From: Patescibacteria group bacterium
GTDB taxonomy: Bacteria; Patescibacteriota; Microgenomatia; UBA8517
Reading direction: 5' to 3'
Assembly (NCBI GenBank): GCA_035291665.1
Contig: DATDRP010000002.1
Coordinates: 1,085-65,084, forward strand
DNA: 64,000 nucleotides
A program made the translations under genes and the position numbers. Numbering within the stretch: position 1 is the first letter of the stretch; every line of letters starts with the position of its first letter. The notes below the pieces were generated by a model. It worked only from the letters and a program-made list of their open reading frames with translations, was not told the origin of the DNA and did no database searches. Below are positions 39,239-44,890 of the stretch, one piece after another.

Positions 39239-40144
39239 CTAGTTTCTCGAAAATATTTTTCTAATATCTTTTATCGACCATTTTTTCTTCTGGGCGACAT
39301 AGGCAAATGCCGAAAGACCCAAAACTCCCGCACCTGACCCTATAAGTATAATCGGAACAAAATCCGTTTTTCCGGAATCGCTTTCATACCCCATGACACT
39401 GGCGCTACCCACTCCGTTTGAGTCTACTATTTCGGATGGTTCGCTTTCTTTTAGGTCTAACTTGATCTCTTCCGTAGGCTTTGCCATTGTGAGAACTTTG
39501 GTGGGCTTGGCAGTAGGCATGGGAGTTGATGTCGGCTTGGGGGTCGGTGTTGCCGTCGGAGTGGGCGTGTTGGTTGGCTGTGGTGTTGCCGTCGGAGTAT
39601 TGGTTGGTTGTGGGATAGAAGTGGGAGACGGGCATGGAGCTAATGTAACTCCATAATTACTTGTTCCTTTGGTTGCTGCAGCTAACCTTTCAATTGTGTT
39701 GCCAGGATCTGATCCTTCCGTCACAACAATTCTTCCTACGGTTTGGCCATGATCAGGGGGGCATACATTTCCTGCACCTCCATAAGTTATCGAATCTATG
39801 GGATTATCAGGATCTGAAATTAAAATCAACTTAATTGTGTCACCTGAATTTCCCAATCTATTCGACCAATCAATAGTACAAAAATTGCCTGTACACGTAG
39901 CTTCAGACAAATTTTTAACATTATCAGAGTCATCAATTATTTGATAGTTAGTCAGTTCCTCACTGTCGTGATAAATTTCTACCCAATCCGGCCAGTCTGA
40001 ATCATCACTAGTTCCAGCAGCTGAACTAAACTCATTAATCACAACAACGGCTCTGGTAACTGAAACCGACATCAGTAAAAATAAAAAGCTGAAAATCAAA
40101 ACTGCAGGCAGGTTTAAAAATGTTGCTCGCCCAATTGTTCTCAT
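39239..40144 (-). CDS. surface protein with lamin-tail domain, PT-rich linker and C-terminal TM anchor
   Basis: VVINEFSSAAG...DWVEIYH LTD signature, TNTPTATPQPTNTPTPTATPTPKPTSTP linker, C-terminal hydrophobic segment then KKKW. Confidence 0.65.
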   Translation of the reverse strand: MRTIGRATFLNLPAVLIFSFLFLLMSVSVTRAVVVINEFSSAAGTSDDSDWPDWVEIYHDSEELTNYQIIDDSDNVKNLSEATCTGNFCTIDWSNRLGNSGDTIKLILISDPDNPIDSITYGGAGNVCPPDHGQTVGRIVVTEGSDPGNTIERLAAATKGTSNYGVTLAPCPSPTSIPQPTNTPTATPQPTNTPTPTATPTPKPTSTPMPTAKPTKVLTMAKPTEEIKLDLKESEPSEIVDSNGVGSASVMGYESDSGKTDFVPIILIGSGAGVLGLSAFAYVAQKKKWSIKDIRKIFSRN

Positions 40145-40162
40145 GAATTAATTAAAAATACT

Positions 40163-41338
40163 CTAATAATTAATGTGAAGATAGTATGTTTCAAGGTCCG
40201 AGTCATCATGGTTGACTTTAACGTAACGCAGTGCGCAGCCGTTCGATCCCGAAAAGCTTCCTCTATATAGCTCACCTGCCTTAACTGCTTTGACGCTTGG
40301 AGAACTATTGCTATCAATATCGATTCCGTTATGGAACGAATAAACCCTGCCTACCCAGGTATTTCTCACCGCCCATGTGCTTCCAAAACCCTGCGAATAT
40401 TTTATAGGTTCGTTCAAAGGCCAACTCCAAGATCCGCTCGGGTTAAAAGGATCTCCGTCAGAACTCCCGCAAGCCGATCCCGAACAGTTTTCATAACCAA
40501 TTCCGCCTCTTAAATAATTGAATGGATTTTGAGCTGCTCCATTGGTACTCACAATAAAATGAAGATGCTCGCCGCTGCTGTTGCAGGAAGGTCCCTGGAT
40601 AACTGATGCAATCCGATCTCCTTCATTGACATGCCCCACCCGGGTTTCCGTACCTTTCCCTGAAATGATGGCAACGATTGCTTCGTATTCCGAACGAGCC
40701 GATGCTAAAAGCTGTTGGTATTTCTTTTCATCATTTTTTGTTTGTTCCAGGAGTTTCGCTTTTGCTGTTTTTTGAGAATTCAACGATTTTTGCTGGACAA
40801 TCAGTTCGTTCTGTAAAGTCTCCTGATCAGATTTTTGCTCTTCATATGTCACTTTTGCTTTGTTGAGTCTCTCCAAAAGATCAACATCTGATTGTTGGAT
40901 GCGTTTGAGGTAGTGGAAACTGGAAAATGCATCAGATATTGTATCGAACTGCAGGAATAACATATATCCTTCGGAAAAACGGGACATCTTGTAGGTTTTA
41001 CTTGCACGCTCAGAAAAAGCATCACCCAAAGCGCTTACCGAAATTTCAAGTTGGTCAATCCGCCCACCCAGAAGATTTATTTTTTCTTCGGTTTGGGAAA
41101 TTTTCAAAAGAGTCAGCTTAATCTGCGCATCGTATTGAGCTACCTGGTTGGATAATGTATCAGCCTCCGCAGAAAGCCTTTTTATCTCGTTTTCGTATTG
41201 TTGAATTTCCTGCGATAGTCTCTGAAGTTTCTCTTCTTCGGTCTCAGCGCTGACACTTTTTGTTCTTAACAAAACCGCAGCCGAAATTAGAACGGCTATC
41301 AAAAGTAATAAACCGAGTTTTTTTAGGTAACATTTCAT
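40163..41338 (-). CDS. EnvC/PcsB-like coiled-coil protein with (apparently circularly permuted) M23 peptidase domain
   Basis: Signal/TM, about 200-aa coiled coil, then GEHLHFIVSTNGAAQNPFNYL (the M23 C-terminal HxH block) before FHNGIDID...AVKAGEL...YYLHI (M23 N-terminal blocks). Immediately downstream of ftsEX. Confidence 0.7.
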   Translation of the reverse strand: MKCYLKKLGLLLLIAVLISAAVLLRTKSVSAETEEEKLQRLSQEIQQYENEIKRLSAEADTLSNQVAQYDAQIKLTLLKISQTEEKINLLGGRIDQLEISVSALGDAFSERASKTYKMSRFSEGYMLFLQFDTISDAFSSFHYLKRIQQSDVDLLERLNKAKVTYEEQKSDQETLQNELIVQQKSLNSQKTAKAKLLEQTKNDEKKYQQLLASARSEYEAIVAIISGKGTETRVGHVNEGDRIASVIQGPSCNSSGEHLHFIVSTNGAAQNPFNYLRGGIGYENCSGSACGSSDGDPFNPSGSWSWPLNEPIKYSQGFGSTWAVRNTWVGRVYSFHNGIDIDSNSSPSVKAVKAGELYRGSFSGSNGCALRYVKVNHDDSDLETYYLHINY

Positions 41339-42252
41339 TTCTTCTTTCCGGCACGGGATACGGCTATAAAACTACCCACTAAACAAAGAAGTGTTCCGAT
41401 AAAAAGCTCGATTCCCAGAATGATTCCAAAAATGCTTAAAAGCGTAATAGTATCACCCGGAAGTATCGGTATTTCGCCAAAATATTTAAGGAGCGACGGG
41501 GTGCTGTAAAGTATGATCAAGAGCGAAATTAACCAACCGGCAAAGACACCTGTGAATGCGTAAAGCAGAGCTTCAAGCATGATCGGGGATCGAATGAACC
41601 CGGGTGTAGCCCCAATAAGCGATAAAATCTCTACTTCATTTCTTCTGGTGGTCATACGCATACCCATGATGACCAAAATCAAAATGAACGATGTTCCGAG
41701 TAAAAATCCGGCAAAAATTCCCCCTCCAAGACGGATGTAATAACTGATCTGGCGCAGTCTTGCCACAACGTCGGTTAAGCTCTCTTCACCCCCGAGGCTT
41801 GCCGTAAAACCAACCTCATCGACAATTGATTCATTCTTAAGTTCGGTAATCATCCCTTCAGCATATGAAAGATCATTCAGTGTAAACTCTACGCTGGCAG
41901 GAAATATGGAAGGGGATACCAATTCAGTTAAGAGGGGATTTTCCGATGTGGCGTTTTTGTATATTTCCAATGCTTGTTCTTTTGAAACGTAAGTTACGTT
42001 TCTGATTTTTGAATCTGACTTCAACTTATTTATAAGGTCTTGGCTTTCCAGTTCCGTTGCCGTGTCAGTTAAAAAAGCTATGATTTGAGGCCTTGTTTCA
42101 AAATATCTGATTACCTGATTCGAAGAATATACAAAAATCAGAAGTATAGTTGTCACAAAAAAAGTTATCATCAGAACAAAGAGAGCCGATAACGCCTGAA
42201 AAGGGGTTCTTCGAATATTATTTAATGCTGTTTTAACGTGTATATTTGCCAT
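41335..42252 (-). CDS. ftsX: cell division ABC transporter permease FtsX
   Basis: N-terminal TM, periplasmic domain, C-terminal 3-TM FtsX bundle. 4-nt overlap with the downstream gene. Confidence 0.8.
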   Translation of the reverse strand: MANIHVKTALNNIRRTPFQALSALFVLMITFFVTTILLIFVYSSNQVIRYFETRPQIIAFLTDTATELESQDLINKLKSDSKIRNVTYVSKEQALEIYKNATSENPLLTELVSPSIFPASVEFTLNDLSYAEGMITELKNESIVDEVGFTASLGGEESLTDVVARLRQISYYIRLGGGIFAGFLLGTSFILILVIMGMRMTTRRNEVEILSLIGATPGFIRSPIMLEALLYAFTGVFAGWLISLLIILYSTPSLLKYFGEIPILPGDTITLLSIFGIILGIELFIGTLLCLVGSFIAVSRAGKKK

Positions 42253-42254
42253 AT

Positions 42255-42989
42255 TTATTTTTTTACCGGCTCAACGGATTCGATTATTTTATTCTCATCT
42301 GATTTTACACTTTTATTATCTTCAGTCTTCTTTTTCGAATCAAATGTTAAGACTCCTTTGTCCAACTTAATCACCCGCTTCTTATGTTTTTCAATAATTC
42401 CCTGATGATGGGTAGCAATAATTATCGTTTTTCCTTCTTTATTAATTTTCTCAAAAAGGTCAATTATTCCCTCTGCCGTATCCCAATCAAGATTTCCGGT
42501 TGGTTCGTCTGCCAAAACCACCTTCGGATTAACAACCAACGCTCTTGCAAGGGAAACCCTTTGAAGCTCTCCGCCGGATAATTGTGACGGGAAAAAGTCT
42601 TCCCGGTTTTTGATGTCCACCAAACTTAAAACATGCGCAATCCTGTCTTTCCAATCTTTTTCCGGTACTTTTGAGACCGCAAGAGCAATTTCTACATTTT
42701 CCCATAAAGTTTTTTCCGGTATAACTTTAAAATCCTGAAAAACAACTCCGATTTTTTGACGCAAACCGGGAATGTCTTTGATTTTCAATTTCGAAAGATC
42801 CTGTCCATCAAAAATTACCTGACCTTTATCGGGGAGGATCTCCTGAAGGATCAACCTCAAAAGAGTAGTTTTTCCGCTGCCGGATGGTCCTGTTATATAA
42901 ACAAATTCACCGCTTTCTATACTGAGATTTATGCTTTCCAGAGCTCTTACTTTACCGAAACTTTTAGTGACATTTTTAAATTCAAACAT
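42255..42989 (-). CDS. ftsE: cell division ATP-binding protein FtsE
   Basis: Walker A GPSGSGKTT, signature LSGGELQRVSLARAL, Walker B VLADEPTGNLD. Confidence 0.85.
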   Translation of the reverse strand: MFEFKNVTKSFGKVRALESINLSIESGEFVYITGPSGSGKTTLLRLILQEILPDKGQVIFDGQDLSKLKIKDIPGLRQKIGVVFQDFKVIPEKTLWENVEIALAVSKVPEKDWKDRIAHVLSLVDIKNREDFFPSQLSGGELQRVSLARALVVNPKVVLADEPTGNLDWDTAEGIIDLFEKINKEGKTIIIATHHQGIIEKHKKRVIKLDKGVLTFDSKKKTEDNKSVKSDENKIIESVEPVKK

Positions 42990-43134: not shown

Positions 43135-43662
43135 TCATTCAACCACTTTTATTTTACCAACATCCATCAGCCAACCTGCAGATTTTGCAGAAATTGTCTC
43201 ACCCCAGACTGTAACTTTCTTATCTATAAACACATCCAAATCAATCACAGTTGAAGTCAAATAAACATATTTTTCCTCACCCATATCACGATCAAGGTAG
43301 TGAGTGCCTTCTCCTTTGATGCCCCCGGACTTGAGAACCCCCTCGGCAGAATCTCTGAACGTGGACTCATCCGTTACTCCCGCTTCAGTCACCTGCTTTT
43401 TATCGTCTACAACTACATCACCGCCGGATTTTGATATGCTTGATTTAGCCTGGGTTCCCGACAAAAACCAACCCGTTGCCACACCTGCCAAAACAACAAC
43501 TAAAGAACCCAGAATCAAAGAAAGTGTCTTTTTTATATTTTTTTTCGGCATCACTTCCTTAACCAATGGTTTTTCAGCTGGAACTTGAGCCTCGGGGTGA
43601 ACTTCCGGAGTCAGAAGGGAATCTGTTTTTACAACTTCTTGGGGTTTCGTTTTTTCGTCCAT
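43135..43662 (-). CDS. membrane-anchored hypothetical protein
   Basis: Charged N-terminus, single TM, extracytoplasmic C-terminal domain. Confidence 0.4.
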   Translation of the reverse strand: MDEKTKPQEVVKTDSLLTPEVHPEAQVPAEKPLVKEVMPKKNIKKTLSLILGSLVVVLAGVATGWFLSGTQAKSSISKSGGDVVVDDKKQVTEAGVTDESTFRDSAEGVLKSGGIKGEGTHYLDRDMGEEKYVYLTSTVIDLDVFIDKKVTVWGETISAKSAGWLMDVGKIKVVE

Positions 43663-43816: not shown

Positions 43817-44890
43817 CTATAATCCCAGCTCAGCTTCGATAAATTTATCAATTTCACCATCCAGAACTTTATCGGGGTCGGAAGTTTCAACGTTAGTACG
43901 AAGATCTTTCACCATTTTATACGGATGAAGTACATACGAACGGATTTGGTTTCCCCATGAAGCCGGCCGATATTCTCCTTTGAGTTTTTCCACTTGGTTT
44001 TTTTCCTCTTCCTGTTTCCGAATCCAAAGCAGCGCACGGAGATGTTCCAGAGCAAATTTCCGGTTTTGTTCCTGAAAACGTTCTGTCTGAGAGGTTACCA
44101 CTATTCCTGACGGAATATGCTTCAATCTTACTGCAGTCGAAACCTTCTGAACATTTTGACCACCCTGAGTTGAAGCGCGGTAGAATTGCCAATCAAGATC
44201 TTCCTCTTTTATCTGAATATCCGGAAGGTCGGTTTCTTCCAGTTCGGGAAGCACTTCGACCAGTGCAAATGAAGTTTGTCTCAAATTGTCCGCATTGAAA
44301 GGGGATTGGCGGACCAGTCTGTGGGTGCCGGCTTCATTTTTAAGATATCCGTAGGCATACTTCCCTTCAATTTTTACTGAAACACTTTTTAACCCGGCTT
44401 CCTCACCTTCGCTTACCGACAAAACAATCGTATTCCATTTTCTTATTTCACAAAAACGAAGATACATCCTATATAACATGCTTGCCCAATCCATAGCCTC
44501 TGTTCCTCCCTGACCGGCATGGATTGAAATTATCGCGCTACGCTTGTCAAAGGGCTCGGACAGAAGCAGTTCAACCTTAAGCTTATCCAACATACGTTTG
44601 GTGTCCGAAACGCTTTTTTCCATATCATCGCTTAGGGAATTTTGCTTGGCCAAATCGGAAAGAAGCGTGATATTAGACTCAATTTCTTTGAATCTTTGAA
44701 TTTCATCATTCAGGTCGGAAAGCTCCTGCATTACTTTTCTTGCTGATTCCTGGTTATTCCAAAATTCAGGATCAGTTGATTTCCCTTCCAAAATATGAAG
44801 ATCTTCCTCTTGCTTCGCCAAATTGTAATTCTTCCTGATATTCTCAAAAGAGGCTACTAACTCATCAACTTTTTCTTTAATAGTGATCAT
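43817..44890 (-). CDS. prfB: peptide chain release factor 2 (uninterrupted, no +1 frameshift site)
   Basis: SPF tripeptide (RQSPFNA), GGQ motif (TQGGQNVQKVSTAVRL), 357 aa in one frame. Confidence 0.85.
   Translation of the reverse strand: MITIKEKVDELVASFENIRKNYNLAKQEEDLHILEGKSTDPEFWNNQESARKVMQELSDLNDEIQRFKEIESNITLLSDLAKQNSLSDDMEKSVSDTKRMLDKLKVELLLSEPFDKRSAIISIHAGQGGTEAMDWASMLYRMYLRFCEIRKWNTIVLSVSEGEEAGLKSVSVKIEGKYAYGYLKNEAGTHRLVRQSPFNADNLRQTSFALVEVLPELEETDLPDIQIKEEDLDWQFYRASTQGGQNVQKVSTAVRLKHIPSGIVVTSQTERFQEQNRKFALEHLRALLWIRKQEEEKNQVEKLKGEYRPASWGNQIRSYVLHPYKMVKDLRTNVETSDPDKVLDGEIDKFIEAELGL

Follow-up and report, generated by a model that had tools for sequence, protein, structure and literature searches.

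The window considered here is a stretch of 64,000 nucleotides from a Patescibacteria group bacterium (GTDB lineage Microgenomatia, UBA8517; assembly GCA_035291665.1, contig DATDRP010000002.1, positions 1,085 to 65,084). On its minus strand, positions 40163-42989 are filled by three tightly packed open reading frames (ORFs), namely ftsE, ftsX and a gene encoding a protein of 391 amino acids (aa) with a coiled coil and an M23 peptidase domain. On the evidence of its sequence, the M23 domain of this FtsEX-linked protein is circularly permuted, with the half that normally ends the domain placed in front of the half that normally starts it. The gene product is likely an extracytoplasmic partner of FtsEX and itself a peptidoglycan endopeptidase of permuted M23 type, gated by FtsEX. 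FtsEX with a coiled-coil hydrolase is an already known type of system, as is an M23 domain in the position of the FtsEX partner. The permuted M23/LytM domain in an FtsEX partner is real and conserved, and the literature searched on M23, LytM, EnvC and FtsEX yielded no account of such a permutation.

The zinc-ligand motifs of M23 peptidases are HxxxD and HxH, which are complemented by catalytic histidines (PMC8498115). The collinear order HxxxD ... YxHL ... HxH is replaced in the 391-aa protein by HxH ... HxxxD ... YxH-end. The GEHLHF block (H258, H260) lies 78 residues ahead of FHNGID (H336, D340), in agreement with the roughly 80 residues given by a first-pass annotation of this DNA, and the protein ends with YYLHINY-stop, three residues past the catalytic H388, as had also been read there. 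The Pfam profile Peptidase_M23 (PF01551) matches the protein with an E-value of 7.1e-10 and 39.4 bits (gathering cut-off 28.7). This match is split into two stretches, the best of which aligns aa 335-390 with profile positions 2-53 of 96, and the halves match in swapped order. The NCBIfam models MepM, SpoIIQ and Pgp3 match aa 236-277 with their C-terminal ends; on the permuted domain no NCBIfam model scores above its cut-off, and no model of Pfam or NCBIfam matches it collinearly. In a phmmer search against the PDB, the phage protein 9m7n is matched by aa 295-388 at its residues 770-859 and by aa 237-276 at its residues 871-910. A hidden Markov model (HMM) was built from 43 normal-order M23 domains found among the weaker matches of the representative search described below. 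Nodes 90-133 of this model are matched by aa 233-277 of the native protein with 37.8 bits and nodes 4-85 by aa 300-390 with 55.8 bits, and these two matches are complementary without overlap; the bit scores alone carry weight, as the E-values stem from a two-sequence search.

To reverse the permutation in silico, aa 296-391 were placed directly in front of aa 226-281. The re-joined sequence matches the Pfam M23 profile in a single stretch, covering positions 2-96 of 96, with 47.8 bits versus 41.9 bits for the two stretches of the native domain. Against the normal-M23 HMM it yields one collinear match of 107.2 bits. In the PDB, 9m7n is matched collinearly with an E-value of 3.4e-6, compared with 0.026 for the native split match, and the Neisseria M23 peptidases 3slu and 6muk are matched as well (E 1.3e-3). 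With swapped profile matches, far beyond what chance would give, and a collinear re-joined sequence, the circular permutation suspected in the first-pass annotation is borne out. The normal collinear domain that was listed there as a possible refutation is not what the alignments show. The permutation point is the hairpin loop after the YxHL strand.

Segment A, the normal end of an M23 domain, has the consensus V..G..IA...G..C.S.G.HLHF....G...NP..YL, and segment B, the normal start, the consensus GSW.WP...QG.G...FHNGIDI...V.AV..G.L......G...Y..V.H......YLH. A linker (aa 278-299, about 22 residues) leads from ...NPFNYL to GSWSWP... and is rich in cysteine, glycine and serine (C285, C290). Nowhere else in the domain is conservation as low as here (0.27-0.38). 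The coordinates of these and all other features are collected in Table 1.

Table 1. Features of the ftsE-ftsX-hydrolase region in window coordinates.
Feature	Positions	Strand	Basis or remark
ftsE, ATP-binding cassette (ABC) ATPase, 244 aa	42255-42989	-	TIGR02673, Pfam ABC_tran
ftsX, permease-like membrane subunit with extracellular domain, 305 aa	41335-42252	-	Pfam
Coiled-coil and permuted M23 gene, 391 aa	40163-41338 (stop codon 40163-40165)	-	ORF list
aa 1-31, N-terminal signal peptide or membrane anchor (MKCYLKK-LGLLLLIAVLISAAVLL-RTKSVSA/E)	41246-41338	-	read from sequence
aa 34-225, two-helix coiled coil, presumed FtsX-binding module	40664-41239	-	AlphaFold2, Foldseek, BLASTP
Segment A, aa 229-277, normal M23 end (HxH = H258, H260)	40508-40654	-	HMM, NCBIfam and PDB matches
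Linker, aa 278-299, ancestral C-terminus to ancestral N-terminus	40442-40507	-	without profile match
Segment B, aa 300-391, normal M23 start (HxxxD = H336, D340; H388)	40166-40441	-	HMM, Pfam, PDB
175-aa protein	43135-43662	-	between prfB (43817-44890) and ftsE
301-aa protein	39239-40144	-	18 nucleotides downstream of the hydrolase gene

The permuted protein belongs to a large family. A search with the full-length sequence returned 1786 proteins at E <= 1e-3. The best 120 of these are 383-426 aa long, 60-68% identical to the query at a query coverage of at least 92%, and all end with ...YLHINY; those with names are assigned to Woesebacteria or Microgenomates. A precomputed PF01551 match is present in 119 of these 120 listed homologues. 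The domain alone was searched against 1.84 billion cluster representatives (50% identity), which gave 472 matches. About 90 of the best 150 representatives are permuted, each being matched in a single full-length stretch, whereas M23 proteins of normal order, recognised by two-stretch matches, appear from about E 5e-8 and dominate at values weaker than about E 1e-6. For the distant member P0188, all 116 of 116 matches are permuted, with names from Shapirobacteria, Levybacteria and Microgenomates. Over all proteins fetched, the HxH half comes first in 330, the normal order is seen in 44, and one is a tandem duplicate. Members of the family are about 375-430 aa long and terminate in YLH(V/I)NY, YLHVQ or WYWHVQ. 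Named relatives are nearly all Microgenomates-type Patescibacteria; this restriction is approximate, because the taxon names were taken from record titles and several are evidently wrong (e.g., 'uncultured Gammaproteobacteria' on Microgenomates-type loci). A phage origin was considered and rejected, a scan of viral contigs having found no relative.

Residue conservation was assessed in 314 non-redundant permuted domains. H336, D340 and H388 are each present in all 314, H258 in 313 and H260 in 312 of them, and the tail after H388 comprises two to four residues in 304. Since the zinc ligands and the catalytic histidines are all retained, we infer that the two halves fold into one active site; that invariant active-site residues are contributed by both halves points to a single re-formed domain. 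C252 in segment A is found in 312 of the 314 domains, and 310 of these 312 also have a cysteine in segment B, placed in either of two alternative columns or in both (C368 in 156 domains, the other column in 170). This co-occurrence suggests a disulfide between segments A and B. Woesebacteria-type members contain four cysteines (C252, C285, C290, C368) and a linker with a CxxxxC motif, while other, distant members contain two, with the segment B cysteine at a different column and a linker that is 6-8 residues shorter and lacks the motif. In a mean-field direct coupling analysis of the 314 domains, couplings caused by indels and subfamilies dominate, and nothing was obtained beyond the coupling around C252 and C368.

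An AlphaFold2 model of the domain alone (aa 222-391), computed with a diverse alignment of 73 sequences, is a single compact domain with a predicted local distance difference test (pLDDT) score of 94.9 and a predicted template modelling (pTM) score of 0.91. By our own reading of the model, the strands follow one another along the chain in an order that agrees with the M23 consensus. A Foldseek search with the domain model in the PDB and BFVD recovered no M23 structure, which may point to a practical gap of 3Di-based searches where proteins are circularly permuted. The first-pass annotation had named an AlphaFold model as a check for a single M23 fold; a single compact domain was indeed predicted, but its identity as M23 was not confirmed by the fold search.

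The coiled coil connects the permuted domain to known FtsEX partners. The AlphaFold2 secondary structure places its helices at aa 34-119 and 134-225, with the tip at about 120-133. The hydrophobic N-terminus that precedes it is common to all aligned homologues; an AxA-type site can be read from its sequence, and AlphaFold2 predicts a helix at aa 2-25. The best PDB matches of the full-length model in Foldseek are all coiled coils of FtsX partners, led by EnvC in the FtsEX-EnvC complex of V. cholerae (8tzl_E, E 9e-4) and including the N-terminal coiled coil of RipA (6ewy, target-normalised TM 0.73) and PcsB (4cgk). In BLASTP, the coiled coil is collinear with that of the Firmicutes FtsEX partner P0220, and the Pfam model CC_PcsB matches relatives such as P0282. 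With helix 2 reaching to aa 225 and the first predicted strand of the beta-rich domain beginning at aa 230, no segment intervenes between the two. Over its final 25 residues, helix 2 is conserved at 0.65-0.68, compared with 0.66-0.74 for the catalytic blocks; as this end is conserved like the catalytic motifs, it could act as an autoinhibitory element. The chain both enters and exits the M23 domain beside the strand carrying H388.

The start codon of the 391-aa ORF overlaps the stop codon of ftsX (ATGA). FtsE is recognised by TIGR02673 (265.1 bits, cut-off 264.85) and by Pfam ABC_tran (2.4e-37), and FtsX by Pfam FtsX_ECD (aa 56-147, 4.7e-14) and FtsX (aa 179-289), both above the cut-off; the NCBIfam FtsX equivalog models stay below theirs on this 305-aa protein (133.1 versus 255 bits). 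Synteny was examined in 80 loci kept from species-representative genomes, in which the recurring order is prfB, a 175-aa membrane protein, ftsE, ftsX and the permuted-M23 gene. In 74 of the 80 loci, ftsX lies immediately upstream of the permuted-M23 gene, and ftsE is found upstream in 72. Five of the six loci without an upstream ftsX are cut by a contig end, which gives 74 of 75 loci when only those with enough upstream sequence to be informative are counted. The module of ftsE, ftsX and a coiled-coil M23 gene recognised in the first-pass annotation is thus real and conserved.

The closest normal-order relative among the named ones is WP_100065645.1 of Miniphocaeibacter massiliensis (Firmicutes), which bears two annotations, 'murein hydrolase activator EnvC family protein' and 'peptidoglycan DD-metalloendopeptidase family protein'. 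It shares the gene order ftsE, ftsX, partner, as well as the signal peptide, a similar length and a CC_PcsB-type coiled coil that is collinear with aa 33-210 of the 391-aa protein. Its M23 domain has intact HxxxD, YxHL and HxH motifs in collinear arrangement, whereas the domain described here is permuted. Furthermore, a low-complexity stretch rich in serine and lysine (about aa 260-299) precedes the M23 domain of the Firmicutes protein, while in the 391-aa protein coiled coil and domain are joined within about five residues.

EnvC of E. coli and V. cholerae (FtsEX-EnvC-AmiA/B; PDB 6TPI, 8TZL) likewise combines an antiparallel coiled-coil hairpin with a C-terminal LytM/M23 domain. The LytM domain of EnvC lacks catalytic residues, and its groove is occluded by a restraining arm of 57 residues that is released by FtsEX (PMC7668044). 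In contrast to this inactive amidase activator, the 391-aa protein has invariant catalytic residues, no arm and a permuted domain. PcsB (S. pneumoniae), CwlO (B. subtilis) and RipC/RipA (mycobacteria, corynebacteria) are FtsX-binding coiled-coil proteins which are hydrolases themselves and are autoinhibited until FtsE ATPase signalling occurs (PMC11627006). The coiled coil described here resembles those of RipA and PcsB in Foldseek. The catalytic domains of this group are cysteine peptidases of the CHAP or NlpC/P60 type, compared with the M23 metallopeptidase here, and are tethered by a linker (52 aa and proline-rich in RipC) which is absent here. A precedent for a permuted peptidoglycan-peptidase domain is found in the permuted NlpC/P60 proteins (YaeF/poxvirus G6R, LRAT-like), in which the order of the catalytic residues is swapped, according to Anantharaman and Aravind 2003 as referred to in PMC6403190; fold and catalytic class differ from those of M23.

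Judged by its sequence conservation, the protein probably acts as an enzyme in its own right, as PcsB, CwlO and RipC do, and not as an inactive activator of the EnvC kind. The invariance of every catalytic residue suggests a zinc endopeptidase cleaving septal peptidoglycan under the control of FtsEX. While the permuted sequence, its persistence across the family, the retained catalytic residues and the synteny are observed, we infer the fold, enzymatic activity, FtsX binding and gating. According to the proposed mechanism, the protein would be secreted or anchored outside the cytoplasm of the Microgenomates-type Patescibacterium, where its helical hairpin, similar to those of EnvC, PcsB and RipA, would dock on the extracellular domains of FtsX. 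Helix 2 would pass within about four to five residues into the permuted M23 (LytM-type) zinc metallopeptidase domain. The chain of this domain would start at the hairpin loop after the YxHL strand and run through the HxH half, the linker and the HxxxD half to the stop. Both halves would form one active site that cleaves peptidoglycan as an endopeptidase, and its activity would be gated by ATP-driven movement of FtsE, transmitted via FtsX and the coiled coil.

As a hypothesis, the arm-less geometry suggests a tight mechanical coupling of the coiled coil to the active site. A more far-reaching and rather doubtful idea is that the permutation rewires the control by FtsEX. As the domain is cut in the hairpin directly after the strand with the catalytic histidine and its new N-terminal strand lies about five residues from helix 2, ATP-driven movement of the coiled coil could directly dislodge or seat an active-site strand or the C-terminal tail of two to four residues. 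The catalytic centre itself would then be switched, and the conserved cysteine pair would hold the split domain together. Such a mechanism would differ from that of EnvC, in which an arm is released, and from that of RipC and PcsB, in which a tethered domain is freed.

Several points weigh against a gated endopeptidase acting as FtsEX partner. One informative locus (L061, 4953-6230) encodes a permuted coiled-coil M23 protein with no ftsE-ftsX upstream of its gene. Large proteins of unrelated kind (P0234, P0235) carry the permuted M23 domain as well, which is hence not intrinsically tied to FtsEX. Neither an autoinhibitory restraining arm nor a flexible linker is visible between the coiled coil and the M23 domain.

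An alternative function would be that of a non-enzymatic regulator similar to EnvC, whose permuted LytM-type domain would do no more than bind and activate a separate amidase or other hydrolase when released by FtsEX. The architecture, with a signal peptide, a coiled coil and a LytM-type domain encoded after ftsEX, is that of EnvC, which in its complex with FtsEX is also the best Foldseek match of the full-length model, and some members are labelled 'septal ring factor EnvC' by the Joint Genome Institute (JGI). However, the LytM domain of EnvC lacks the catalytic residues (PMC7668044), and the conservation of all five in at least 312 of 314 relatives here is hard to explain without catalysis. 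Furthermore, the EnvC equivalog NF008644 reaches only 10.5 bits on the 391-aa protein against a cut-off of 270, and the segment corresponding to the restraining arm is missing. A regulator of this kind is therefore considered unlikely. The label 'EnvC-like', given in the first-pass annotation, is appropriate for the coiled coil but not for the M23 domain.

The two halves could also be remnants of a tandem duplication which complement each other between chains in a domain-swapped dimer, or of which one alone is functional. Permutations usually arise by duplication with subsequent terminal deletions, a tandem M23-M23 protein exists (P0245), an inhibited dimer is known for PcsB (PMC11627006), and Foldseek did not recognise M23 in the monomer model. 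On the other hand, AlphaFold2 predicts the monomer as one compact domain, the HMM nodes 4-85 and 90-133 are exactly complementary without overlap or remnant, and the segment A cysteine is almost always accompanied by one in segment B, so that complementation between chains appears improbable, and more so than the regulator. An artefact, i.e., a mis-assembled, frameshifted or truncated M23 gene, could be suspected because the window derives from a metagenome-assembled genome (MAG) and the protein stops so soon after the catalytic histidine. Hundreds of independent assemblies, among them the 80 species-representative loci, share the length, the order and the C-terminus, which leaves an artefact with next to no likelihood. 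A truncation or assembly error, which the first-pass annotation had listed as a possible refutation, is ruled out by this homologue set, as more than 300 homologues have the same ends. The preferred interpretation as an FtsEX-gated endopeptidase with a permuted M23 domain is the likely one.

M23/LytM domains are among the most studied domains of cell-wall hydrolases and their regulators, with lysostaphin, LytM, EnvC, NlpD, ShyA and SpoIIQ as examples, and the complexes of FtsEX with its partners are a model for mechanical signalling by an ABC ATPase across a membrane. The permuted proteins form a large natural family in which the M23 chain is cut beside the catalytic histidine and joins the signalling coiled coil directly, and offer a new geometry for testing the transmission of the FtsEX signal. 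They also identify, for the Microgenomates-type Patescibacteria as a major uncultured lineage, the likely hydrolase of cell division. With regard to annotation, profile tools report the family as partial or split M23 or as 'hypothetical protein'. Together with the failure of Foldseek on a model with a pLDDT of 95, these split profile matches indicate that permuted hydrolases may be under-called. Public annotations of the family vary between hypothetical, CwlO-like, EnvC and DD-metalloendopeptidase family; the record identical (100%) to the 391-aa ORF (P0001) is named 'hypothetical protein [Patescibacteria group bacterium]'.

Outside the FtsEX partner, the permuted M23 module is reused in other architectures. 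Among the proteins of the representative search, P0234 (1256 aa) carries it at the C-terminus; in P0235 (894 aa; cluster mate P0279, 2492 aa) it lies about 60 residues short of the C-terminal end and is combined with an Exo_endo_phos domain. The permuted gene of locus L061 encodes a protein with 43% identity, and the ORFs upstream of it are unrelated to the cluster. The tandem protein P0245 (L081, 4576-6063) is a BlaR1-like Peptidase_M56 with two complete M23 domains (aa 235-360 and 368-494). It was considered as a 'living intermediate' of the permutation and rejected, since it is a BlaR1-like M56 sensor encoded beside a BlaI/MecI-type repressor and not an FtsEX partner. It shows that tandem M23 duplications, the raw material for permutation by duplication and deletion, exist, albeit in an unrelated context.

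Many of the related loci, such as L003, L004, L006, L007 and L058, stand in records whose titles read 'uncultured Gammaproteobacteria bacterium', 'uncultured Pseudomonadales bacterium' or 'Spirochaetia bacterium'. For these MAGs, which have a Microgenomates-type cluster, the taxonomy given at record level looks wrong.

A scan for promoters and terminators between 38.5 and 45.5 kb gave counts at the level of shuffled sequence, and no operon boundary could be drawn from it. Two neighbours of the three genes deserve mention. The 175-aa protein upstream of ftsE, which gives no match in Pfam, is disordered at the N-terminus, crosses the membrane with one segment and has a beta-rich C-terminal domain of about 90 aa. 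As it is kept between prfB and ftsE here and in 69 of the 80 related loci, it is a conserved, uncharacterised member of the cluster of prfB, this gene, ftsE, ftsX and the hydrolase gene. The 301-aa protein downstream of the hydrolase gene has no real match in Pfam; it consists of an N-terminal hydrophobic segment, a globular part, a linker rich in proline and threonine, and a C-terminal membrane anchor. A relative of it is located downstream of the hydrolase gene in 30 of the 80 loci.

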